From positions 139-64,138 of the forward strand of contig JBHLON010000010.1 in the NCBI GenBank assembly GCA_048940445.1: 64,000 nucleotides of DNA, in the 5' to 3' direction. Position 1 is the first letter of the stretch. Each line of letters opens with the position of its first letter. Below are positions 474-23,567 of the stretch, piece after piece. Both the position numbers and the translations under genes were made by a program. The notes under the pieces were generated by a model that worked only from the letters and a program-made list of their open reading frames with translations, made no database searches and was not told where the DNA came from. This stretch comes from Promethearchaeota archaeon. Its GTDB lineage: Archaea > Asgardarchaeota > Lokiarchaeia > Sigyniarchaeales > SOKP01.

Positions 474-1727
474 TTATACTATCCGAACCAGAGTTGTATG
501 GCAAAATTCACATCTAATCGCCCCCTTCTTTGAATCTTTTTGAGTTAAAGACTCTTTGAGTTGAATACCGCAATATGGACAATTTAATTCATGAATTTTG
601 GCTCTTAATTTTTCAAACAGCCATAGTGGAATCTCATTTTTGAAGAACCAATTTGGTAAGTTGCTTAAAAAGTTGGAATTCTCGAACACAATGTCTAGTT
701 CTTCATCATTAAGGTAATTCAAATATCCTTGATTGATTAGATATAAAACAACAGAAGGATAGCCACTTTCTAAACGTAAGGCAATTTCTTCTTTGAATAC
801 TTTATTAGCAAGGGGATCTCCAGCCTTTACAAGAGCCTTTAATAACGGAAAAGCTAAATTTCTGTGTAACAAATTTGAAGAGTAATTGTTTTCATACCAC
901 GCCTGAATGTTAGAGCAATGTGCCCAAAATTCAACTTCGGGAGAGATACTAAATTTAGAAGCCCCTTGTTGTTCCATTGAGGTATCTAAGATTTCTGCAG
1001 CTTCATCTATTGACTCAATCTTATCATAGTCTCTGATTTTATCAAGTTGAAGATTTAGCAGTAGATATTTGCATTGTCGAAATAGAGAGCCTCCCACATA
1101 TATATTTGTTTTTTCATTTTCCAATCTAAGCTTTAAGTAATTATTAATTATGAATTCTTTTCTTATATATACAAAGGGGTTCTGCTCCCCATTGCAATAC
1201 TGAAATATCATGTTTACCAAAGTTTGAAAAGCTTGGTTAACATTTTGTTCATTTTCAAGAGGAATTTCTGCGAATGCTGAAAGGTGATAGCTTTCTGCCA
1301 ATGATCTTCCTTGTTCCCATGATACTTCTCTTGTTTTATCTTTTGAATTAACTGATGAACCTAAGAGCATGATTGGGATGTCTCTGGTTCTTTGTCTTAT
1401 TAATCTGATATGATCTGCTAAGCAATCTAAAGATCCCGAATTCATGATATCATATAAAAATATAGCACCTAAAGCTCCACAAGAATACATTGGTATAAGA
1501 GATCTGAAGCGTTCTTGTCCTCCTACTAACCAAATCTGTAATTTGATCATCTTACCAGATGATTCTACCGATTTAACATGAAATTCTACACCAATTGTCA
1601 TTTCATAGTCTTCTTTAAAGACGTTATGACAATAATTTGCTTCCAGAAATTGTTTGCCAACAACCTCATCACCCATGATCATTATTTTATAAAGATAATC
1701 ATACATTGGCATTTTATGAATTTCCAA
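474..1727 (-). CDS. Rab-like small GTPase-fold protein with degenerate nucleotide-binding motifs, C-terminal helical domain and zinc ribbon
   Basis: 417 aa. The first ~170 aa align by eye to the paralog at 8323-9117 (YDYLYKIMIMGD, MTIGVEFHVK, KLQIW..GGQERF, GALGAIFLYD). G1 is GDEVVGKQ (no Ser/Thr) and G3 is WLVGGQE (Asp lost). NKxD is replaced by GSSVNSKD and SAK by AEIP. The C-terminus ends in CPYCG-x17-CEFC. Confidence 0.75.
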   Translation of the reverse strand: MEIHKMPMYDYLYKIMIMGDEVVGKQFLEANYCHNVFKEDYEMTIGVEFHVKSVESSGKMIKLQIWLVGGQERFRSLIPMYSCGALGAIFLYDIMNSGSLDCLADHIRLIRQRTRDIPIMLLGSSVNSKDKTREVSWEQGRSLAESYHLSAFAEIPLENEQNVNQAFQTLVNMIFQYCNGEQNPFVYIRKEFIINNYLKLRLENEKTNIYVGGSLFRQCKYLLLNLQLDKIRDYDKIESIDEAAEILDTSMEQQGASKFSISPEVEFWAHCSNIQAWYENNYSSNLLHRNLAFPLLKALVKAGDPLANKVFKEEIALRLESGYPSVVLYLINQGYLNYLNDEELDIVFENSNFLSNLPNWFFKNEIPLWLFEKLRAKIHELNCPYCGIQLKESLTQKDSKKGAIRCEFCHTTLVRIV

Positions 1728-1780
1728 AAATGTTTTCTCTACTATTCATATAAAAAATTATAAATATAAATTTCACACTT

Positions 1781-4700
1781 TTATGAGTGTTCTGATAAGG
1801 GCAGAACAATTGATTTCTCAATAAGGGATTCAAGGGCTTTAATTACCAGATCTTTTTTCTTCTCATGAACCTGTTCGATTGCATCCTTTAAATAAAAGTC
1901 AGGCTTAACGTTGGTCATGGATATGATCACATTGAGAAGTCTTAGTTCCATTTTATTTAACTCTCCTTCTTGCTTTATTCGATTAATGTTTTTCATTGTA
2001 GTTAATTTAAAATATTCTTTATAATAGAGCTGTAAATGTTCATCTAAAAGCTGTGGCAATTTTTTATTAAATTCATCTAAGTCTCCATTAAAGGCTTCAA
2101 ATTTTTCTGAAAAGATTGAACTTATCGATAGTAGAAGTTCTGAGGTTTGAGCTTTTAGTCTTTCAGAAGCTTGTTTTTTTAGAATAAAAACAATTCTAAT
2201 ATCCTTATTTTCACATATGAATACATTAAAAAATCTAAAATCGAGACTCATCATTCTATCAATTCCACTTAGATTTTTTGGAGTCTCAATGGAATAGTCT
2301 TTAATGTGCTCATCCCCTACAATTCTTTCACCTAACATAGTAATTGCTTGAATAAAACCACCGAGCAAATCATCTTGAAATCTTTGTTCTGAGAAATAAC
2401 TTTTTGAATAAATCCCCAAACCGCTTCCTTCCATTGATAGCGTAATTGCTTCAATATTCATGACATCTCTATATTTTTGGGTTTTTGCGAGAAGCTCAGA
2501 TTCCTTTTTCCTTTTTCGAGGTAAAATAACATAACTTCTCAAGCCAATTATTCCAAATATCCCTATAATTCCAATTAATCCGAATACAACAAACCAAAGT
2601 GGAACATTAGATTGGGGTAATACTTCTTGTGTGATGACTATAACAAAGGAATATTCTTTAACCTCGTATAATGAATTTTCCTTCGAAATGGTTAAATTCA
2701 TTCGATAACTTCCTTGAATATTGACTGGAAGCCTCAATTCTAATTCATAAGTTCCAGAACCGAAGTAGTCAAAATAACCGTTACCAAATCTCCACGAGTA
2801 GAAAACTGTTGCATTTTCAATATAAATATGGGAATTGCTTTCAGTTAAGTTAACTTTAATTGTAATTACTTCTCCAACGAAAGCTTCAAGTGAGTCTTTA
2901 AAACCCATCGTATTTACAGTTATGGGTATATTATTAATGTTGACAATGATAGTTTTATAAATAGTAGTGTATCCTGCTTTTTGCAACTTAATTGTCGCTG
3001 CATAGGTCTTAACAGAAAGAGACGTTGTGTTTAAGCGCACTACAAATCCATATGAGTCGGTTATGACTTTATATGCGGCATCCCAGCTAACAGTACAATT
3101 TGCTCCAAGGATTAAGGTTCCTGAGCTTTCGACTGTGTAATTCACTCTAATATCATAAACTTCATTAAGATCCGCAAATATTGAAGTTCTATTTACATTG
3201 CCTTCCGCTTGGATTGGAAATATAGTCATAGCTATAAAACCTGTAGTCGCTTGATAGTTACTCTTATTAGCAAAAATTGTAATAGTATATGTCTCTATAA
3301 TTCCTTGTTTTGGCAAATCCCAAGTAGAGAAATTTAAGGAATACGTACCATTGTTATAATCTGTAATGAAATATGGGTTTTGCCAATTAGTACTTATATT
3401 TGCTTGCGAAATTAAGGTACCAGTAGAGGCTCCAGTTACATTTATCTGACAACTAATATAGTCATTTCCTAAACCACTAATCACTTTCTTTGGAGTCTCT
3501 AAAGCTAATGGTTGAGCTAAAATTTTTAGTTGAACTAAATTGATTGAGGTTTGATTCTCATAATAGCTTTTTGAGGCATTAAATGAAAAATAATAATTTC
3601 CAAGATCGAGAGAGTCTGTATTAATCTCACTGATATAAACGCCAGGTTGATAAGTCATCATTCCAAATGAATCGAATGTAGAACTATAGGTAATAGTCCC
3701 ATAAGCAATTGATGCATTTAGATCAGAATCGATAAATTTTACCTTTAGCAAAAAAGATTCTCCAGCAATCCGTTCTAAATAAGTATCTATTGCAATTAAA
3801 CTCGTTTTATGGATAACATTAAATTTCAACAATTTAATTCCAACTTGAGAGGCGTTTTGGTCGTGATCAGTCCATATAATCTGGGCAGAATATTTTCCAC
3901 ATGTTATATTTTCTACTCCAATAGTTATTTTCGAAAATTCGAATATTCCATCAGCGTCAACTAAAATCTTATCTTCTTGATACATCAAGGTTCCATTTGA
4001 ATAATAAATTTTTAAACTCGCGTTTGTTTCATCTAAATTTGGAATAGATGCTGTATTGATTGTTCCATTTACTTTCAAATCATCTAAGGCGTAGAAAGTA
4101 TTGTTCTGTGCCCAATAACTTCCCGTTCTCCTGTATATATTAGCTTCTTCAACATAATTTGGAGCATCCACTACTACCTTCCAAATTCCATTAGTTACAA
4201 TAGTATTAGGAATCTTTAAAGTTGAATTCCCATATCCAGCTGTCGCTAATACATCATTTATTTTATTAGCACCGTAAGGATTAATTAATTGAGTAACATT
4301 CCAATTAGTTGGTTTTGTTACATTCAAATAATAATCAGTAGAGTATGTACCGGGTATTATGATGGTAAAATACATAGTCCAAGTGGCTTTTGTGTTCGTA
4401 TCGACTTGAAATTCTGATCCTGTAAAACCTAATTGAGTTTTTGTTTGCTTTTGAGATGTGGCCTTTACAAAGAATTCAGTATTTAAGACTATTCTACCTG
4501 AAGAGTTAGAGCTGAAACCAAATAGGTGATATCTTCCATCAATATCACCTTCCCACATATTTTTAAGAGTGATGGTGCCTTCACCTGGACCGATATCGTT
4601 TATATTAGTCCAATCATCATTGGTGATATCATTGATATTGAGATTAATATCGGAAGGTTTTGGAAGGGTCGATAATGAAAGTGTAATATTATCATAAAAT

Positions 4701-5587
4701 AACTGTAAAAATCCAGATGGATTAATTCCAGAGTTTCCGAAATTCACTCCAAATTTTAAGGAAATTTTGCCTGGGAGAGCCATACCATATTGTTCTGGAG
4801 TGAACAATGGTATAGAATCTTGATGGATTTCATTATCGGCAATATTTGATAATTTCTCAGAAAAGGATTGTGAAATTCCATTAACATATAAAGAGAAAAA
4901 AACTTTAGCCCCCCCAAGCCCAGTCATCCAATTAATATCACTGTAAGATGCCCAATACTTAAAATTAATATCCCAATATTGATATGGAATTTGATATCTT
5001 GGTAAATTAAATGTATAATTTACATAAGAATTAAAATTGTTCCATGGTGTTCCTGGTTCATTAGCATCTTCAAATCTAATGTATATTGAGTCATTGTCTC
5101 CTTCTGGATTGTTATACCAACCAAAAGTGACATTCTGTGGGCGCTTAGTATAATTGCTCCAATGTGATAAATCTATACCTGTATTAAAGGTTTCATTTAC
5201 CCAAAGTGAATCATAATCATAAATGTTTGAAATATTACATATTACCTCATTAGCTTTCCAGTCTTCAGGAACAATTATAGATGCATTGTCATTATTGTTT
5301 AAATCTAATCCATTATTTGGAAAATCAGCAAAACCATATTCAGTTATATTTTGGGCTTTACCTATCCCAGAATATTGACTTATGGATATATCATTTAGTT
5401 TTAACTCTAAATCCATAGAAGGTGTATCTATTTGATTAAAATTGAAATCTTTCTTATAATTTTCCTCTGATTTCCATACAATTTGATTAGAGAGTAATAA
5501 AATTGATAAGTTTAAGGCAAGTAAAAAGATTACATTTATCCATTTCCTTGTTTTAAATTTCACTTTTTTCACAAGAATTAAGTACAA
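1781..5587 (-). CDS. large single-pass surface (glyco)protein with tandem beta-sandwich-type repeats and a cytoplasmic longin/roadblock-like tail
   Basis: 1268 aa. N-terminal signal anchor (WINVIFLLALNLSILLL). The ~950-aa N/T/Y-rich ectodomain has about 35 N-x-S/T sequons (hand count) and at least four ~98-aa repeats. One TM helix (LWFVVFGLIGIIGIFGIIGL) is followed by RKRKK and a 246-aa tail. The TTG start is uncertain by a few codons. Confidence 0.75.
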   Translation of the reverse strand: MYLILVKKVKFKTRKWINVIFLLALNLSILLLSNQIVWKSEENYKKDFNFNQIDTPSMDLELKLNDISISQYSGIGKAQNITEYGFADFPNNGLDLNNNDNASIIVPEDWKANEVICNISNIYDYDSLWVNETFNTGIDLSHWSNYTKRPQNVTFGWYNNPEGDNDSIYIRFEDANEPGTPWNNFNSYVNYTFNLPRYQIPYQYWDINFKYWASYSDINWMTGLGGAKVFFSLYVNGISQSFSEKLSNIADNEIHQDSIPLFTPEQYGMALPGKISLKFGVNFGNSGINPSGFLQLFYDNITLSLSTLPKPSDINLNINDITNDDWTNINDIGPGEGTITLKNMWEGDIDGRYHLFGFSSNSSGRIVLNTEFFVKATSQKQTKTQLGFTGSEFQVDTNTKATWTMYFTIIIPGTYSTDYYLNVTKPTNWNVTQLINPYGANKINDVLATAGYGNSTLKIPNTIVTNGIWKVVVDAPNYVEEANIYRRTGSYWAQNNTFYALDDLKVNGTINTASIPNLDETNASLKIYYSNGTLMYQEDKILVDADGIFEFSKITIGVENITCGKYSAQIIWTDHDQNASQVGIKLLKFNVIHKTSLIAIDTYLERIAGESFLLKVKFIDSDLNASIAYGTITYSSTFDSFGMMTYQPGVYISEINTDSLDLGNYYFSFNASKSYYENQTSINLVQLKILAQPLALETPKKVISGLGNDYISCQINVTGASTGTLISQANISTNWQNPYFITDYNNGTYSLNFSTWDLPKQGIIETYTITIFANKSNYQATTGFIAMTIFPIQAEGNVNRTSIFADLNEVYDIRVNYTVESSGTLILGANCTVSWDAAYKVITDSYGFVVRLNTTSLSVKTYAATIKLQKAGYTTIYKTIIVNINNIPITVNTMGFKDSLEAFVGEVITIKVNLTESNSHIYIENATVFYSWRFGNGYFDYFGSGTYELELRLPVNIQGSYRMNLTISKENSLYEVKEYSFVIVITQEVLPQSNVPLWFVVFGLIGIIGIFGIIGLRSYVILPRKRKKESELLAKTQKYRDVMNIEAITLSMEGSGLGIYSKSYFSEQRFQDDLLGGFIQAITMLGERIVGDEHIKDYSIETPKNLSGIDRMMSLDFRFFNVFICENKDIRIVFILKKQASERLKAQTSELLLSISSIFSEKFEAFNGDLDEFNKKLPQLLDEHLQLYYKEYFKLTTMKNINRIKQEGELNKMELRLLNVIISMTNVKPDFYLKDAIEQVHEKKKDLVIKALESLIEKSIVLPLSEHS

Positions 5588-6138: not shown

Positions 6139-6612
6139 ATGTTTCCACCACATTTGCCTGTGTTAATAATTGGTCTTTTAATTGCTGGTACTGTTGTTGT
6201 AGTAATTATAATTATATTGTTGATAATAGATTTATCTAAGAGGAGAAGGGTTTTAGCTTCTATTTCACAATCAAATTTAAATAATCTATTCGCATGTCCT
6301 AAATGTGGAACTATTGCTACTATTTATCTTATAAAAGTTGTCAGAGACTATATTTTAGTAAAGCAGAGATGCCCAATCCATGGAATAGGACATTCTCTAA
6401 TTCCAACAAGATTAAAAGATGATTCTATGCCCTATTTCCGAGATGCAATATTTCGATGTTTTAAATGTGGACAAAAAGCTAATTTATTTCACGAAAAATA
6501 CTCAGGACCCTGGGCTTTGATCTCAGTAGATTGCCCAACTCATGGAATAAAAACCTATAGAATATGGCACTCAGTTTATGAAGAAATTACAAAAGGTAAA
6601 ACCGATAATTAG
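6139..6612 (+). CDS. membrane-anchored protein with two tandem CxxCG...CPxHG zinc-ribbon-like modules
   Basis: 157 aa. N-terminal TM helix (LPVLIIGLLIAGTVVVVIIIILLII) followed by KRRR. It then carries CPKCG-x21-CPIHG and CFKCG-x22-CPTHG, an internal duplication. Confidence 0.55.
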   Translation: MFPPHLPVLIIGLLIAGTVVVVIIIILLIIDLSKRRRVLASISQSNLNNLFACPKCGTIATIYLIKVVRDYILVKQRCPIHGIGHSLIPTRLKDDSMPYFRDAIFRCFKCGQKANLFHEKYSGPWALISVDCPTHGIKTYRIWHSVYEEITKGKTDN

Positions 6613-7471: not shown

Positions 7472-8344
7472 TTATTCTCTTTCAAAGGAATTTTGAATAT
7501 TACAAATTGAAAAGCCTAATTTCTTATATGTGTGAACAGCAGCATCATTCTCTACTCTTACCGTGATTAAGCACTCCTCTTTTTCTTTAAAAACAGCTTT
7601 CAATACAGAAGAGACTAATGAACTAGCTAATCCTCTATTTCTATAATCTGAATGTGTTCCAACGACCGTTATATATCCCACTTTTTGATACATCCATAAG
7701 CTAGTAATACATACCAACTTCTCTTTCTCAATAATGCCAAACCAAATATTATTTTCATCCATTAAGTTATCATCTAAACTATGATTACCCCAAAATATAG
7801 GATCTGCATTTCTCATGAACAAGACAATCTCTTCTTTATTGCTTTCCTTTAAAGTTTCATATGGATATTTTTCGTAATCCTTTTGTTCTCCTTTTTTCAT
7901 ATCCATACGGTACATTACAATTTCTTTTTTATAATTAGGAAAGAATTTTGCTATAATCGGCTTATGATGTTCAAAACCGGTTATTGAAATTGGGTTGTAA
8001 TTCTCCTCATTCAATAAAAATTCCAAACTTTCATTCGATCCTCTCAATTGAAGCCTGCGATCTTTCCACATTAGGGTCATTCCTTGAATCTTATCATTAA
8101 CATCTAATGCTAAGAAAATTTCAGTATCTTTAGGGTATTGAACATAATCAGCATGGAAGAAAAAATATTCCGCAAAGTTATCTTTAATGAAATCATAAAA
8201 TAATGGTTCATTAACTGGAGTTAGATGAACTGATCGTAATCTTTCATGTATCATATTTCCTCTTAAGAAATGAGATGCTAAAAGAATTTCGGATTTCTTA
8301 TTTATCAAAAATAAGCTAAATTCTATGCTGCCCTTTTTCTGCAA
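7472..8344 (-). CDS. GNAT family N-acetyltransferase
   Basis: 290 aa. The C-terminal acetyl-CoA motif A is VVGTHSDYRNRGLASSLVSSVL, followed by VENDAAVHTYKKLGF. The annotated ATG overlaps the upstream GTPase stop by 22 nt. An alternative Met lies 30 codons downstream. Confidence 0.8.
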   Translation of the reverse strand: MQKKGSIEFSLFLINKKSEILLASHFLRGNMIHERLRSVHLTPVNEPLFYDFIKDNFAEYFFFHADYVQYPKDTEIFLALDVNDKIQGMTLMWKDRRLQLRGSNESLEFLLNEENYNPISITGFEHHKPIIAKFFPNYKKEIVMYRMDMKKGEQKDYEKYPYETLKESNKEEIVLFMRNADPIFWGNHSLDDNLMDENNIWFGIIEKEKLVCITSLWMYQKVGYITVVGTHSDYRNRGLASSLVSSVLKAVFKEKEECLITVRVENDAAVHTYKKLGFSICNIQNSFERE

Positions 8345-9117
8345 TTATGCGTAAATCTTTCCGAGATCGTGAGTTCCTTACCGCAATATGGACAATAGTT
8401 TTTACTCTCTGGTTTATTTACATGTGTTTGTCTTTCAAGTTCTGAGCTCGGAGGCCTAAAGATAGAAGATAAAGAGTTTCTTTCATTAAGTGGCAGTCTG
8501 GGTTTAGATTCAATTGTAGATGGTTCTTTTAAAGTGATCCTTCCAGGACTAAATACAGTTTCATTAGCTATTAATTTGTCGGGTACGCCCTCCCCAATCA
8601 TAAGACAAGTCATGATATAAAAGCAATCTCCTACTCCATCGCCAGTTTTAGCCGAAGTTTCCATATAATAAAGGTTAGCATTCCTAGTAAAACGATTAAT
8701 TTCACTAATAGATACAGTTCTTTCGTCTGATAAATCACTTTTATTGCCTACGAGTAATAGAGGGATATTAGCGGCAGTGTTAGCCCGTATTTCTTGGATC
8801 CATCGAGGAAGATGCTCAAAACTAGCATAGTTAGTAAGATCAAAAACTAAAACAGCTCCTAGAGCTCCTCGATAATATATAGGCCTGATTGTACTAAATC
8901 TTTCTTGGCCTCCTGTATCCCATAGTTGCAGTTTGCATCTAATTACACCTTCATATGTGTCTATAGGAATTGTCTTAACATGAAAATCTACGCCAATTGT
9001 CATCTTATAGTCTTCAGTAAATAGGCCAGTTGAAAATCTTACGGTTAATGCTGTCTTACCGACTCCACCATCCCCTATAGCAATTGTCTTAAAAAGATAA
9101 TCATAATTGTCTGCCAT
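8323..9117 (-). CDS. Rab-like small GTPase with C-terminal zinc knuckle
   Basis: 264 aa. G1 GDGGVGKT, switch I TIGVDF, G3 KLQLWDTGGQERF, YYRGALGA, LVFDLT, G4 GNKSD, G5 TSAK. An ~80-aa S/P-rich linker leads to CPYCG-x11-HNC at the C-terminus. There is no CAAX or CC motif. Confidence 0.9.
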   Translation of the reverse strand: MADNYDYLFKTIAIGDGGVGKTALTVRFSTGLFTEDYKMTIGVDFHVKTIPIDTYEGVIRCKLQLWDTGGQERFSTIRPIYYRGALGAVLVFDLTNYASFEHLPRWIQEIRANTAANIPLLLVGNKSDLSDERTVSISEINRFTRNANLYYMETSAKTGDGVGDCFYIMTCLMIGEGVPDKLIANETVFSPGRITLKEPSTIESKPRLPLNERNSLSSIFRPPSSELERQTHVNKPESKNYCPYCGKELTISERFTHNCRKRAA

Positions 9118-9915: not shown

Positions 9916-10314
9916 ATGGCAGTTTTTTGTAAAAGATGTGGGAGAGTTTTGAAATCAGCTAGAAGTATTAAATTAGGTTATGGACCCACATGTTATAGAA
10001 TAAAAACATTAAATGAAAATCCTGTTAATATTGAAGAGGAAATTAAATTCTTAAAAATAGAAGTAAAAATGGTAAAAAAAATACTTAAAGAATTAAGATC
10101 TTCTGAGTTTATACCTAACCAAACTTCTCCAATAATAAAGATAAAAAAAGATGAAAGCCTCCCTGAAAGAGAAAACAATAGGGGTCAAATGAGAGAAGTG
10201 ATTCAAGAATTAAAGACTTGTTTTCAAAACTGTAATGGAGATGTAAGAAACCTATTAAAACCAATCCAAATTGAAACAAATCTTAATGAAACGTCTCATT
10301 TGGCAATAGTATAA
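9916..10314 (+). CDS. small protein with N-terminal CxxCGR...GYGPTC motif (DUF6011-like) and coiled-coil region
   Basis: 132 aa. MAVFCKRCGRVLKSARSIKLGYGPTCYRIK matches the C-x2-C-G-R...S...G-x-G-P-x-C pattern I associate with phage-borne DUF6011. The rest of the protein is charged and helical. Confidence 0.5.
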   Translation: MAVFCKRCGRVLKSARSIKLGYGPTCYRIKTLNENPVNIEEEIKFLKIEVKMVKKILKELRSSEFIPNQTSPIIKIKKDESLPERENNRGQMREVIQELKTCFQNCNGDVRNLLKPIQIETNLNETSHLAIV

Positions 10315-10451: not shown

Positions 10452-13400
10452 TTGAGAATTTTAGTATTAAGCCACCGGAATCCATTTTTTCCTCCCTATA
10501 TTTTTCAAAAAGTGCCAGAAACAATTGAACGGGACGACCTTAAACAAGTTCCAACATTAATAGAGCTTTATGAAGATGGATTTTTTATCCATATGTTTGG
10601 AACTTTTAAGACAGCTAATCTATTGTTTGATATTCCGAGTAAATATTCAAGAACAAAAAAGGAGCGCCTTTTAATATCAATTATAGTTGACAATAAGAGC
10701 AAAATTAAAGCCACATTAGCTCAAGAGCTTTTAGAGGGTTTCGTTGAAGAATTTAAAAAAATTAAAAAGGTTTACAAAGCATTTTATGTAGACTCTCAAG
10801 TGTATCAAGGAGATCCAGATAAATTAGAAAAAATCAAAACACTTTTAAATACTTTTAACGCAACTTTTCCGGAAGAACAAGTTATATTTGAACAAAAAGA
10901 AGCAAAAGTATTAATATTTGGGCTTTCGCTAGCAGGAAAAACGACTATCATTAGAACAAGAAGAAAAACGGTATCAAAAACGATATTTCCAACTATAAAT
11001 GTAGACATTTCTAGAATCTTAGTAAATAATGTATCGTTATTAACTTATGACACTCCAGGTCAGGTAAAATTTAAGGAAATATGGAAACCGTATTTGAAAG
11101 GGCAAGATGGTCTAATTTTCGTATTAGACGTTTCAGATAATTTAAAGTTTCCGGATGCCCGTAAATTGTTGCATGAAGTAGTAGGTATACCAGAGTTGAG
11201 TGAACTACCTCTTCTTATTCTATTTAATAAGATTGATTTAGAAGAACCAAACGTCAGTGATCTAGTAGAAGCTATGGGATTGGAAAAACTCGAAAAAATG
11301 CCAATGAAGTACTTTTTAACAAGTGGAGTTAATAACATAAATGTTGATGAAGCGTTTAATTGGCTTTCACTTAAAATAGCAGAAAGAGTTGAAACGTATA
11401 CTCCAAGAAGGGAGATAGGGATAATATTTTGTCGATGGGATGAGAATCTAGGAGTTAAGATTGAAGCTGTGTACCCTGAAGATGCTTTCGAGAATCCGGA
11501 ACTGATTTCTGTAAAAAGCTTTTCAATTTCACAATATGTTTTTGGAGGAGAGGAATTTAAGCGAGCCATGGTAATTTTACCTTTTCCTCATTTGAATTCA
11601 AATGCTGCGATTTATTTTGATTCAGTATCTGATGAGAGTATTAGAGGGGGTTTATTACCTTTATCATTAATAATTTATTACAATGATAGGATTCCTAAAA
11701 GCATTATTAACCAATTCAATCATTTCGTTCTCAAACAATTTGAAATTATAAAAAATAATTATTTAAATAATGTCCAGGTATTAGAACTTCTTAAAGAAAC
11801 TCATAGTACCATAATTCATCAAATTGATGCGTATAAACCCTCAATTGAAGCGCTCAAGATTGCAGAATTACGATATGAGGTTTTATTCAAAGCAGCTCGA
11901 GACGCGATTTTAATAATTGATAAAAAATCGGGGATTATAATAGATGCAAATAAGCAAGCAGAAGAATTATTCCAACGCCCTTTTGAGGATTGTATTGGAT
12001 ACCATTCAAGCCAATTATTAAGTGATATTATTAACATCGATTTTAATGAGGAAATATTTGATGAACTTAACAATCCATTTCCTTTAAGATTAGACGTTGT
12101 TGATAATTCAGGCAACCTTATTCCTGTTGAAATAAGTGTAAGTGAAGTCCAAATGGGAGGGCAAGTCTTTATTCAATACATAATTCGAGACATTAGTAAA
12201 AGAATGGAAGCTGAAATTAAATTAAAGAATTCTGAAATTAGGTATCGTCATCTTTTTAAAGATTCACCTTTCTTTATACTTTTAATTGATCCAAATGGTT
12301 CAATTGTTGATTGTAATCCTGCTTTAGAAAAAGCTTTAGGATATACAAGAGAAGAGTTAATGGGAAGAAAGTTTGTAGACCTTTCACTTATTCATCAAAA
12401 TTATCTTATAGAGGTTCTTAAAAGATTTAAAAAAGAAGAAAGAAGTAGAATTTTTCCACCATTAGAAATTCAACTTTTTCAAAAAGATGGGAATCTCATT
12501 TGGGTAAATATGCAATCGTCTTTTGTAGAGATTGGGAATGAAACGTTTTACCAAATTATTTGCCATGATGTAACAGAACAGAAAAGAACAGAACAGGATC
12601 TCAAGAAAATTTCTAAATTACAAGCTATAATTGCGAGAATTATTTCAAGATTTGTTGGTATAAAAGATTTCAATCAAGCTATTAATGATTCTCTTAGAGA
12701 ATTTGGAGAACTAATTAATGCAGCACGAGCTTATATTTACATTTTTAGTAATACGTATAATTTCATGAAGAGACATTATTTATGGTATGGTAAATTGCTT
12801 TATCCCCAAATTGAATTACCTCAATTTATATCAATCAACAACTTTCCATGGGTAATTGAGAAATTAGATACTTCTGAATATTTTTATGTTAATGATATTA
12901 CTATCCTTCCTGATCAGGCAAAAAATTTCAAAATATTTCTTGGAGATCAAAAAATTGAAAACTTTTTGCTATTTTCAATAAGAATTGATGACCATTTAGA
13001 AGGTATAATGTGTTTTGACAATCTTTCAGAAAAAGACTATTGGAATGAAGAAAATCTTGAAATATTGGGAATTTTTTCTGATATCCTTAAAAATGCAATA
13101 TTGCGTAAGTTAGCAGAAGACAATTTGCGTATTAGTGAAGAATCTTTTCATGATGAGTTTGATAGAGAATACTTTTATAAAGAGCTCTTTGTAAATGATA
13201 TGAATAATATCATTAGAAATCTTCAATCATCAATAGATGATTATATCAAACCAATTAATCAGATAGCTACAAAGCTACCAAATGAACTATTAGATAATGT
13301 GAAAAGTCAATGTATAAACGCACAACTCTTAATCTACATAATACAAAAATTAACGTTGCTTAACGAAACTAAAATTGTAATTGAAAAGGTAGATCTAAAT

Positions 13401-13823
13401 AGAGTGATTGATGATGTCATAGATTTCATTACCAGTACCTATACTAACAAAAAAATAAATATACTTGTTGAACATCCAAATGAGCATTTATACGTAAAGG
13501 CTGATAAGTTCCTAATAGATATTTTTGTTAATTTACTTATTAGCTCGATTAGATATAGCAAAAAACCTTCAATTGAATTTAAAATTGTTATCAATAGAAG
13601 TCAAGAAAATAACATAAATTATGTTAAAATTAAATTCATAGATTATAAGAAAGAGATATTAAATGTAGAGAAAAACTTGATTTTTAAGAAAGAAATAAAA
13701 TATGACAGCAAAATTAAAGAAATAATTTTAGGTTTTCTCTTAGTTGAACGCATCTTAAATAATTATAAAGGGAGAATATGGGTAGAGAACTACAATTTTG
13801 TCATTTCAATTCCTGAAGCATAA
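10452..13823 (+). CDS. multidomain Arf-like GTPase / PAS-PAS-GAF / degenerate histidine-kinase fusion protein
   Basis: 1123 aa with a TTG start. The Arf/Arl-type motifs are GLSLAGKTT, PTINV, YDTPGQ, FNKIDL and NWLSLKI (aa ~150-310). PAS-like segments start at LRYEVLFKAARDAILIID and IRYRHLFKDSPFFILLIDPNG. A GAF-like segment spans aa ~720-885. The C-terminal HK-like core has N-box VNLLISSIRYS but no H-box His and no DxGxG. Confidence 0.85.
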   Translation: MRILVLSHRNPFFPPYIFQKVPETIERDDLKQVPTLIELYEDGFFIHMFGTFKTANLLFDIPSKYSRTKKERLLISIIVDNKSKIKATLAQELLEGFVEEFKKIKKVYKAFYVDSQVYQGDPDKLEKIKTLLNTFNATFPEEQVIFEQKEAKVLIFGLSLAGKTTIIRTRRKTVSKTIFPTINVDISRILVNNVSLLTYDTPGQVKFKEIWKPYLKGQDGLIFVLDVSDNLKFPDARKLLHEVVGIPELSELPLLILFNKIDLEEPNVSDLVEAMGLEKLEKMPMKYFLTSGVNNINVDEAFNWLSLKIAERVETYTPRREIGIIFCRWDENLGVKIEAVYPEDAFENPELISVKSFSISQYVFGGEEFKRAMVILPFPHLNSNAAIYFDSVSDESIRGGLLPLSLIIYYNDRIPKSIINQFNHFVLKQFEIIKNNYLNNVQVLELLKETHSTIIHQIDAYKPSIEALKIAELRYEVLFKAARDAILIIDKKSGIIIDANKQAEELFQRPFEDCIGYHSSQLLSDIINIDFNEEIFDELNNPFPLRLDVVDNSGNLIPVEISVSEVQMGGQVFIQYIIRDISKRMEAEIKLKNSEIRYRHLFKDSPFFILLIDPNGSIVDCNPALEKALGYTREELMGRKFVDLSLIHQNYLIEVLKRFKKEERSRIFPPLEIQLFQKDGNLIWVNMQSSFVEIGNETFYQIICHDVTEQKRTEQDLKKISKLQAIIARIISRFVGIKDFNQAINDSLREFGELINAARAYIYIFSNTYNFMKRHYLWYGKLLYPQIELPQFISINNFPWVIEKLDTSEYFYVNDITILPDQAKNFKIFLGDQKIENFLLFSIRIDDHLEGIMCFDNLSEKDYWNEENLEILGIFSDILKNAILRKLAEDNLRISEESFHDEFDREYFYKELFVNDMNNIIRNLQSSIDDYIKPINQIATKLPNELLDNVKSQCINAQLLIYIIQKLTLLNETKIVIEKVDLNRVIDDVIDFITSTYTNKKINILVEHPNEHLYVKADKFLIDIFVNLLISSIRYSKKPSIEFKIVINRSQENNINYVKIKFIDYKKEILNVEKNLIFKKEIKYDSKIKEIILGFLLVERILNNYKGRIWVENYNFVISIPEA

Positions 13824-18221: not shown

Positions 18222-18776
18222 ATGTATGATGCAATCTTCAAAATTGTTGTTTTTGGTGATGTTGGGTGCGGGAAAACAACCTTAACTCAGCGTTTTTTAA
18301 CAAAAAACTTCATCCCAAATACCTTTAAAACAATTGGAGTCGACTTTAGTACCACGAGCTTCATGGTTGATAGATTTAACGTTAAGTTAATGATCTGGGA
18401 TTTTGGTGGAGAAGAGAGGTTTAGGTTCATCTTTCCTCAATATGTGCTTGGAGCAATGGGCGGAATTATGATGTATGATATAACAAATCAATCTTCACTC
18501 TATCATTTAAGTGATTGGTTATCGATCATTAGTGATACGAAGCAGATATTTCCAATCATTTTAGTTGGTGGAAAGTCTGATTTAGAGAGCAAGAGAGAAG
18601 TATTATTCAATAAAGGCAGGAAGAGCGCAAAATTAATGGGATTGGATGACTTTATAGAGTGTTCTAGCAAAACAGGGGTACATGTAGAGAATGTGTTTGT
18701 TAGTTTAACTAGATTAATGTTATGTAATATTAATATTAAGGGAATCCCTGGTTCATTTCTTATTCCCAATATATGA
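18222..18776 (+). CDS. Rab/Ras-like small GTPase (divergent G3 and G4)
   Basis: 184 aa. G1 GDVGCGKT, switch I TIGVDF, G3 WDFGGEE (Glu at the catalytic Gln position), G4 GGKSD (Asn to Gly), G5 SSK. There is no C-terminal Cys motif. Confidence 0.85.
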   Translation: MYDAIFKIVVFGDVGCGKTTLTQRFLTKNFIPNTFKTIGVDFSTTSFMVDRFNVKLMIWDFGGEERFRFIFPQYVLGAMGGIMMYDITNQSSLYHLSDWLSIISDTKQIFPIILVGGKSDLESKREVLFNKGRKSAKLMGLDDFIECSSKTGVHVENVFVSLTRLMLCNINIKGIPGSFLIPNI

Positions 18777-22928: not shown

Positions 22929-23567
22929 TTATACTATCTTAGATTCTTCTTCGATGTTTATAGCTTCAGCTTTTTGTTTGACATTTGAGACTGCAGTTAG
23001 TATCTTTTCATGGTATACTTTTTCAATTTCTACCATATTACGGAGAACTTTCTGTATTGTTTCTAATTTTATCTTATTAAATTCTTCCGCGGCAGTTTTC
23101 GCTTCATTTTCTTCCTTTTCTGCTTTTTGTTTTGCGGTCTTTAAGACAGTCTCAGCATTTTCTAATTCCCCAGGTTTTAATTTTTCCTTTGGTTTATTTT
23201 GAGCTTTATTAAGATTTTTCTCAGCTTTTTCAACTTCTTTAACTGCTTTTGATGCTTCGTCTTGCTCGGATTGTAATGTTTTCAAATGTGTAATCAAATT
23301 ATTCAAAGGAGCAATATATTGCTCTCTTAACTTTGTTACTTTTTCTTTGCGTTCATTTTCAATGATTTCAAAAGTTTTGGCTAACGAACTCATTGCTTCT
23401 CCTAATGAAGGAGTTTCTGTTTCAGCATAACTTTTTAATGCTGTTACAGTTTTGCTTATATCTTTTGTTACATCTTCCTCTGCCTTTATGTAATGATTGC
23501 TCTCTTTAACCAGATCAGTGATCTTATCACTTGTCAATCCTAAAGCATCCATAAATTTCTTAAACAA
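22929..23567 (-). CDS. all-helical K/E-rich protein, BAR-domain-like (tentative)
   Basis: 212 aa. A TTG start is preceded by GGTGA 5 nt upstream. The N-terminus MFKKFMDALGL is amphipathic. YIAPLNNL and EKVYHEKIL resemble BAR helix 2 and helix 3 signatures. Confidence 0.6.
   Translation of the reverse strand: MFKKFMDALGLTSDKITDLVKESNHYIKAEEDVTKDISKTVTALKSYAETETPSLGEAMSSLAKTFEIIENERKEKVTKLREQYIAPLNNLITHLKTLQSEQDEASKAVKEVEKAEKNLNKAQNKPKEKLKPGELENAETVLKTAKQKAEKEENEAKTAAEEFNKIKLETIQKVLRNMVEIEKVYHEKILTAVSNVKQKAEAINIEEESKIV

Follow-up and report, generated by a model that had tools for sequence, protein, structure and literature searches.

Characterised longin and roadblock domains typically form dimers that serve as platforms, mostly for small GTPases or for regulators of these; MglB, Ragulator, Mon1-Ccz1, TRAPP and the conservon protein CvnB are examples (PMC3747258; PMC4316618; PMC13343842). 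Asgard archaea encode about 100 small GTPases (109 genes among 5381 in the Lokiarchaeum composite genome) and dozens of longin/roadblock domains, and they lack eukaryote-type lipid-modification machinery for membrane targeting; it is not settled how these GTPase switches act at membranes, or whether they do so at all (PMC4917890). Asgard genomes shuffle longin domains into many architectures (bioRxiv 10.1101/2020.10.19.343400), and an earlier survey recorded 130 Asgard clusters of orthologous genes (asCOGs) of the longin/roadblock superfamily, including proteins fused with GTPases or with two-component domains (bioRxiv 10.1101/2020.10.19.343400; PMC10933270). The subject here is a gene on a 64,000-nucleotide (nt) stretch of the genome of a Promethearchaeota archaeon (assembly GCA_048940445.1, contig JBHLON010000010.1, positions 139 to 64,138), referred to as the window, which has a G+C content of ~30% throughout. 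This gene, 1781-5587 on the minus strand, encodes a single-pass surface protein of 1268 amino acids (aa) whose cytoplasmic tail is predicted to contain a longin/roadblock-fold domain. It is followed in the same direction by an open reading frame (ORF) for a degenerate Rab-like GTPase of 417 aa (474-1727). The full-text and Asgard literature searched contained no account of a giant single-pass glycoprotein with a longin/roadblock-fold domain on its cytoplasmic tail. By placing such a domain a few residues beneath the membrane, the family would supply a concrete and testable candidate for a docking site and for outside-in coupling.

Roadblock/LC7 platforms such as MglB-MglA, LAMTOR2-5-Rag and Roadblock2 (PDB 9jq8) have the same alpha/beta sandwich as the tail model and are among its best structural matches; in roadblock domains, as in the tail, an N-terminal helix leads into strand 1. 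These platforms are small and soluble (Ragulator is lipid-anchored via LAMTOR1), whereas the tail domain is covalently attached to a giant, presumably glycosylated, single-pass protein. The tail domain also gives no Pfam Robl_LC7 signal. The longins of COPI zeta, AP2 sigma, the TRAPP subunits Bet5, Trs23 and sedlin, and Mon1-Ccz1 share with the tail the order beta-beta-alpha-beta-beta-beta-alpha. In contrast to these systems, the tail has one such domain, with no tri-longin array and no SNARE, adaptor or TRAPP context.

Other systems resemble the protein in how their parts are arranged. In the longin SNAREs VAMP7, Sec22b and Ykt6, a single transmembrane (TM) helix within the same polypeptide keeps the longin domain on the cytosolic side of a membrane, as in the tail protein. 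However, longin SNAREs are small and tail-anchored, with a SNARE motif and no ectodomain, whereas the window protein is of type I, with an ectodomain of ~950 aa and no SNARE or coiled-coil heptad region. Nprl2 and Nprl3 of GATOR1 and the Asgard NPRL2-like fusions have an N-terminal longin domain followed by small C-terminal domains, an order also found in the tail, and the C-terminal domains of Nprl2/3 are of winged-helix type. Unlike the tail protein, Nprl2/3 are soluble, with no sequence relation detected, and the reported Asgard NPRL2-like fusions are to two-component signalling domains rather than to a TM-anchored glycoprotein. The closest prokaryotic logic is that of the actinobacterial conservons (CvnA-D), and the resemblance is in logic only. 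Conservons consist of four separate genes in a conserved operon, with a histidine-kinase-like sensor and a conserved GTPase; here, in contrast, the domain is fused to a membrane protein, with no kinase domain, no DUF742 signal and no GTPase conserved nearby. On the outer side of the membrane, part of the ectodomain profile matches solved arrays of invasin/intimin-type Big_1 adhesins (5ldy_A, 5n40_A). Those adhesins are bacterial outer-membrane inverse autotransporters, whereas the window protein is archaeal and single-pass and most of its ectodomain is unmatched to known families.

Fold of the tail and architecture of the protein

The whole tail was modelled with AlphaFold2 from a 24-sequence alignment, giving a mean predicted local distance difference test (pLDDT) score of 81.6 and a predicted TM-score (pTM) of 0.77. 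Numbered within the tail model and not along the whole protein, helices (H) and strands (E) follow the order H7-27, E28-35, E41-46, H55-74, (E81-84), E94-99, E104-110, E113-119 and H125-147, after which come H154-168, H170-173, E175-178, H181-189, H195-210, a short strand, H216-222, H228-240 and E244-246. The juxtamembrane helix is near-invariant at P6, T19, Q20, K23, D24 and N27 in the family alignment, and the domain that follows is invariant at G39, G60, F61, I62, A64, L98, D99, F103, R114, L119 and S124. Across 24 full-length members, there are 16 invariant columns, all of which lie in the tail or beside the TM helix.

In a Foldseek comparison of the model with the PDB, longin or roadblock proteins made up 50 of the 50 matches listed (E-values 6e-4 to 5e-3, probability 0.96-1.00). 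COPI zeta-1 (CopZ1) is the top match. The others listed include LAMTOR subunits, AP2 sigma, TRAPP subunits, sedlin, Gse1, MglB with and without MglA, Ragulator, the Asgard Roadblock2 (9jq8) and MON1A-CCZ1-RAB7A; MON1A has the highest identity among the matches listed (17%). Because the listed matches are unanimous, which is a stronger argument than their modest scores, the membrane-proximal domain is accepted, as modelled, as a member of the longin/roadblock fold superfamily, a level at which longin and roadblock are not distinguished. The helix entering strand 1 is roadblock-like, and the later order of strands and helices is compatible with both. Sequence profiles are silent on this relationship: neither the window protein nor any of 24 family members matches Pfam Robl_LC7, Longin, Fuz_longin or similar families at E<=1. 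One distant member carries the source name 'roadblock/LC7 domain-containing', a label that is not reproduced in Pfam or NCBIfam. The phmmer and profile matches of the tail in the PDB, to mS79 and to the de novo helical bundle WA20, were rejected as chance (E near 1).

The last part of the tail was also modelled on its own. In this model, the final 102 aa form H46-61, E64-66, H67-73, H79-91 and E95-97 at a pLDDT of ~90. When this C-terminal domain alone was searched with Foldseek, nothing significant was returned (best E 0.73, probability <=0.3). Most of the weak matches are winged helices: the cullin winged-helix B (WHB) domain, SarA, DnaD-N, LexA, Fur, Rio2 and the recognition elements of ribosomally synthesised and post-translationally modified peptide (RiPP) systems. 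Pfam DnaD_N matches weakly in 3 of the 24 members (best E 6e-4). The putative recognition helix contains a conserved AIESLI with an acidic and hydrophobic face.

A first-pass annotation, made from the sequence alone, had read the tail as a series of strands and helices forming a longin/roadblock-type domain with a winged-helix-like last ~60 aa. Every strand and helix that it named is recovered in the AlphaFold2 model, and the type of fold agrees with the Foldseek matches listed. For the tail end, the models bear out the topology, whereas a significant structural match is absent. The same annotation had also linked the tail to the first longin domain (LD1) of Mon1/Fuzzy/HPS1 proteins, and this link does not hold. 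An hhalign comparison of the family with a Mon1 LD1 profile, a thin one of three sequences from solved structures, gave a probability of 0.3 and an E-value of 0.19 over 30 columns that cover only the motif SG-P-YS...G-xx-A, the very one that the annotation had singled out, and the tail has one such domain, not three. The motif resemblance is thus a lead only, and membership of the tri-longin group is unsupported.

The remainder of the protein agrees with the first-pass outline, in which a signal anchor is followed by a sequon-rich ectodomain (~950 aa), a single TM helix and a cytoplasmic tail. Hydropathy places the hydrophobic segments at residues 17-38 and 997-1016, with ~952 aa between them and ~252 aa after. 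N-terminal segments equivalent to INVIFLLALNLSILLLSNQIVW are present in the relatives L002, L006, L008 and L009 (the L numbers denote loci), and the TM helix LWFVVFGLIGIIGIFGIIGL is aligned in all family members in the tail alignment. The ectodomain contains 34 N-X-S/T sequons, as compared with 16.5 +/- 3.6 (maximum 26) in 1000 composition-preserving shuffles, and the tail contains 1. Sequon density here is 3.6 per 100 aa, the median of the other window proteins being 0.4. These features point to a type-I surface protein, which the sequons suggest is glycosylated.

The 1268-aa protein has no match in Pfam or NCBIfam. A full-length profile of 24 family members matches PDB 5ldy_A, 'Ig domain protein group 1', with an E-value of 1e-4 at profile positions 559-723, and the putative invasin 5n40_A with an E-value of 0.028. 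The ectodomains of relatives show scattered Pfam matches to Big_1, MG2/MG4, Invasin_D3 and PKD, all weak and under the curated cut-offs. By profile match, at least part of the ectodomain is probably Ig-like and of adhesin type. BLAST self-comparison found no internal repeats in the ectodomain. Homology with full-length relatives spans residues ~250-1268 and so includes the ectodomain from ~250 on.

Distribution, clades and synteny of the tail family

The tail defines a large unnamed family of single-pass, adhesin-like surface proteins in which all member source names seen are Asgard archaeal. Close homologues of the tail number 23 proteins (E 4e-91 to 2e-29), all with Asgard source names where these are given. 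Species-representative genomes yielded 115 matching stretches; the 80 that were kept are all labelled Promethearchaeota or Hod-, Hermod-, Thor- or Odin-, or come from metagenome-assembled genomes named 'uncultured archaeon'. A profile search of 1.84 billion representatives returned 829 clusters (50% identity) at E<=1e-3, of which 456 reach E<=1e-10; the match is nearly always C-terminal, in proteins 700-2300 aa long. In loci with a complete gene, the tail always ends a protein of 900-1837 aa. Members are source-named 'hypothetical protein', apart from the roadblock/LC7 label mentioned above and one 'DUF1682 domain-containing' protein.

A neighbour-joining tree of the tails separates two clades. 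In the large clade, the family gene is followed on the same strand, 17-46 nt downstream in the loci listed, by a gene for a CxxCxxCC protein (PF03692) of ~200 aa, found in 65 of 81 loci. This protein is a candidate operon partner. Synteny extends further, with a 104-aa protein encoded upstream and with a 543-aa protein, a methyltransferase, a 165-aa protein and an L13e-like/HHH protein encoded after the CxxCxxCC gene (for example, L001: 6507-6821, 10871-11482 and 11472-13103). The 104-aa, 543-aa and 165-aa proteins have no match in Pfam, and the conserved neighbours of this clade offer no hint of function. The smaller clade comprises the window copy, L002, L003, L005-L009, L012, L026 and L070, and its members have varied surroundings without a CxxCxxCC neighbour. 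Genomes often hold a copy from both clades: the tree places two loci from each of seven assemblies on opposite sides of the split, and an eighth assembly (L004 and L066) agrees on the basis of tail identity, L004 being outside the tree. The 64-kb window itself holds neither a second family member nor a CxxCxxCC gene. The window gene is the second of two old, co-existing paralogues.

Some family loci depart from the usual gene structure. In L001 (7281-10807; 858 + 268 aa) and L004 (3-2783; 736 + 186 aa), separate ORFs encode the ectodomain and the tail, which could be due to a frameshift, an assembly error or a pseudogene. Locus L096 (1-11937) has two distant members of ~1979 aa in tandem, beside two ATP-binding cassette (ABC) transporter genes and a gene for a 1661-aa Laminin_G_3 protein.

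Explanations for the tail and its neighbour

The explanation regarded as probable is that the gene belongs to an Asgard surface-protein family whose longin/roadblock tail serves as a dimerising docking platform, the GTPase next door being incidental. Dimerisation is expected because characterised longin/roadblock domains are typically dimeric docking platforms. By the same analogy, the tail would form either a homodimer or, possibly, a heterodimer that joins the paralogues of the two clades. The dimer would then hold a cytosolic partner at the inner membrane face, most plausibly a non-prenylated Asgard small GTPase or a GTPase regulator, and the state or clustering of the ectodomain could in this way be coupled to intracellular events. 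The winged-helix-like end would offer a further surface for protein-protein contacts and would not bind DNA. Several points weigh against this explanation. The docking and dimerising role is drawn from analogy, the Foldseek E-values are modest (6e-4 at best) with target-normalised TM-scores of 0.23-0.58 among the listed matches, and the query was a predicted model in which the most conserved helix (GFIQAI) has a pLDDT of only 57-65. The domain is also unrecognised by Pfam, NCBIfam or PDB sequence profiles. The neighbours in the main clade are the CxxCxxCC protein and proteins of unknown function, with no GTPase or known regulator among them. A GTPase partner is therefore not positively supported by genome context. 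Finally, in this one genome, the protein may have a lineage-specific functional link to the adjacent pseudo-GTPase.

The main rival to the docking-platform explanation is a structural coat or adhesin, in which the tail only oligomerises, anchors or spaces the protein on the membrane or cytoskeleton, with neither a GTPase nor signalling involved. Roadblock/LC7 proteins also serve as plain dimeric adaptors, for example in dynein, and the large, probably Ig-like and, by its sequons, glycosylated ectodomain would suit this role, as would a main clade that is single-copy and syntenic with housekeeping-type genes (the L13e-like protein and the methyltransferase) and has no regulator conserved nearby. 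However, conservation within the protein is highest in the tail, which together with the residues beside the TM helix accounts for all 16 invariant columns, and the three distinct modules of the tail go beyond the needs of simple anchoring. Moreover, the characterised prokaryotic roadblock proteins MglB and CvnB act on GTPases (PMC4316618; PMC13343842). A purely structural role is possible but not favoured. Going further than the docking platform, the family might consist of single-pass receptors that use their longin/roadblock and winged-helix tail to recruit or regulate small GTPases at the membrane, a proposal made by analogy and considered doubtful. If true, it would amount to a receptor-tethered GTPase platform in a prokaryote and would explain how Asgard small GTPases, which have no prenylation signals, arrive at membranes; a heterodimeric platform like Mon1-Ccz1, Nprl2-Nprl3 or LAMTOR2-LAMTOR3 might then be built from the two co-occurring paralogues. 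The winged-helix-like topology of the tail end, and the presence of the DNA-binding proteins SarA, LexA, Fur and DnaD-N among its weak Foldseek matches, could instead suggest a membrane-tethered transcription regulator, either ToxR/CadC-like or released by proteolysis, whose C-terminal winged helix binds DNA. Against this, the best of those matches has an E-value of 0.73, and protein-binding winged helices (cullin WHB and RiPP recognition elements) occur among them as well. Because the AIESLI face of the predicted recognition helix is acidic and hydrophobic rather than basic or polar, DNA binding by the tail end is argued against, and such a regulator is scarcely credible.

The remaining explanation, proposed by the first-pass annotation, is a dedicated, co-transcribed outside-in module in which the tethered longin-type domain binds the adjacent pseudo-GTPase. 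The two ORFs run in the same direction, and the listed gap between them is 53 nt. Since GTPase relatives begin MYD... or M..YDY..., the GTPase probably starts at ATG 1712 or 1706 (MPMYDY...), which would widen the gap to 68-74 nt. This short spacing, a tail fold that is that of known GTPase platforms, and a gene in L002 with the C-terminal domain of the pseudo-GTPase 2.9 kb upstream of the family member all speak for a dedicated pair. However, the two genes are not neighbours in related genomes. A small-GTPase hidden Markov model run over 81 family loci (787 kb of flanks) found 11 GTPase ORFs, none within 2.5 kb of the family gene and none directly downstream of it, and no adjacent GTPase occurs in ~88 related loci overall, including those of the closest relatives. 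In P0001 (62% tail identity; P numbers denote proteins) an unrelated gene follows, and in P0002 (59%) the convergent 3' end of a histidine kinase gene homologous to window 10452-13823. P0076 and P0077 (46% and 44% identical over their full length) have no GTPase within 6 kb, and distant members stand in tandem with each other or next to unrelated genes. Reciprocally, none of 13 loci of the GTPase's own family contains a tail-family gene.

The window is dense in GTPase genes. Five genes in the window have a small-GTPase domain (474, 8323, 10452, 18222 and 31754) among 64 ORFs of >=100 aa. The stretch is unusually GTPase-rich, with ~0.8 such genes per 10 kb as compared with 0.14 per 10 kb in the flanks of the 81 related loci. 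Because small GTPase genes make up ~8% of the window ORFs, one adjacency is unremarkable. An independent promoter for the GTPase gene is plausible, since the gap holds a motif resembling a transcription factor B recognition element (BRE) and TATA box, GAAA-TTTATATT, together with a T6 run. Counting both strands, the window has only 7 sites of the pattern [AG]AAA-N0-2-TTTATAWW, and three of the other BRE/TATA-like sites sit 38-123 nt upstream of a co-oriented ORF start. The GTPase neighbour is probably a product of chance or of lineage-specific rearrangement in a GTPase-rich stretch, not a dedicated partner, and a dedicated module is very unlikely. The gene-pair argument for a special locus fails, and the partner of the tail is not readable from this locus.

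The neighbouring pseudo-GTPase and other genes of the window

Table 1. Features of the surface-protein gene and of the adjacent Rab-like gene (window positions; the last column gives the basis of each assignment).
Feature	Positions	Strand	Description	Basis
Whole gene	1781-5587	(-)	1268-aa type-I surface protein; Asgard-wide family with conserved cytoplasmic tail	
N-terminal hydrophobic segment	5474-5539	(-)	INVIFLLALNLSILLLSNQIVW; putative signal anchor or signal peptide	Kyte-Doolittle peak, translation checked
Ectodomain	2600-5473	(-)	~950 aa, sequon-rich; predicted Ig-like (Big_1/invasin-type) beta-sandwich modules	Sequon count, family profile
Transmembrane helix	2540-2599	(-)	Single; LWFVVFGLIGIIGIFGIIGL	Hydropathy maximum 2.55, translation checked
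Basic juxtamembrane helix	2456-2518	(-)	RKRKKESELLAKTQKYRDVMN; predicted to continue the TM helix and run straight into strand 1	Model helix 7-27
Longin/roadblock-fold domain	2096-2455	(-)	Predicted beta-beta-alpha-beta-beta-beta-alpha; variable low-confidence insert after first helix	AlphaFold2, Foldseek
Helical linker	1967-2095	(-)	One short strand, pLDDT ~90	Model; family-conserved W/F149, F176
C-terminal winged-helix-like domain	1799-1954	(-)	Predicted H-S-H-H-S, pLDDT ~90	Models of whole tail and of end alone
Intergenic gap	1728-1780	(-)	GAAA-TTTATATT, BRE/TATA-like at 1763-1774, then T6 run	Sequence read
Rab-like neighbour	474-1727	(-)	Not a conserved part of the module	Pfam Ras, motif alignment
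Rab-like domain	1206-1688	(-)	G1, G3, G4 and G5 degenerate	Motif alignment
G1 motif			Canonical GxxxxGK[ST]; here GDEVVGKQ (S/T to Q)	
G3 motif			Canonical DxxG; here LVGGQ (D to L)	
G4 motif			Canonical NKxD; here SSVN	
G5 motif			Canonical SAK; here IPLEN	
Helical C-domain	669-1166	(-)		Part of 417-aa product
Zinc ribbon	501-581	(-)	CPYC...CEFC	Part of 417-aa product

The 417-aa product of the neighbouring gene matches Pfam Ras over residues 14-174 (E 2e-34) and TIGR00231 (E 8e-15). Its degeneracy, noted in the first-pass annotation, was confirmed: four of the five G motifs are altered (Table 1) while the Ras family score is retained, and the switch-I Thr is the sole motif kept. By sequence, the protein appears to be a pseudo-GTPase. 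It belongs to a separate, very abundant, Lokiarchaeial family. The C-terminal 230 aa, which comprise the helical domain and the zinc ribbon (window 474-1172, minus strand), define an Asgard family of >1417 proteins (those labelled P0174-P0293 belong to it), mostly of 379-406 aa and source-named 'Rab family GTPase'. The same C-domain also heads unrelated proteins of 188-1267 aa, including a leucine-rich repeat (LRR) protein, and is duplicated in P0174. Eight GTPase relatives were read. Wherever their G domain is complete, G[ST]K stands where NKxD would be expected, a hint that nucleotide specificity is altered, and most of these proteins retain GK[ST] and DxxG; at least one further relative, P0181, is also degenerate.

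Other GTPase genes of the window differ in organisation. The gene at 8323-9117 (-) encodes a Rab-like GTPase whose G motifs are intact and which ends in a CPYC...C zinc ribbon. This gene probably forms an operon with the GNAT acetyltransferase gene at 7472-8344 (-), because the two overlap by 22 nt. Both Rab-like proteins near the large gene thus end in zinc ribbons, not in prenylation motifs. The 1123-aa protein of 10452-13823 (+) has an Arf-like GTPase domain (residues 146-307) after an unassigned N-terminal region of ~145 aa, and then two PAS domains, a GAF domain and a HATPase_c sensor-kinase end; it thus resembles the known fusions of GTPases with two-component domains. In L083, a homologue of this gene with 78% identity lies with its 3' end convergent to the tail-family gene.

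Another Rab-like gene, window 18222-18776 (+), has orthologues at L005:941-1483 and L004:8048-8617 (180-189 aa, 56-60% identity). These genes lie 12.6 kb (window), 2.5 kb (L005) and 5.3 kb (L004) from the family member, all three loci being of the clade to which the window copy belongs. Their shared occurrence is read as residual synteny, and it was rejected as evidence of a functional link, as distance and orientation vary. Window 22929-23567 likewise matches L005:8837-9472, at 65%. Elsewhere, the cluster at L100:126-4371 places a full-length member of the GTPase and C-domain family beside two Robl_LC7 genes and an Arf/RagA-like GTPase gene, which indicates that genuine GTPase/roadblock clusters exist in such genomes without a tail-family gene. 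Divergent to the 1268-aa gene, window 6139-6612 (+) encodes a membrane-anchored protein with several zinc-ribbon-like CxxC pairs, and further along, at 9916-10314 (+), a DUF6011 protein is encoded.

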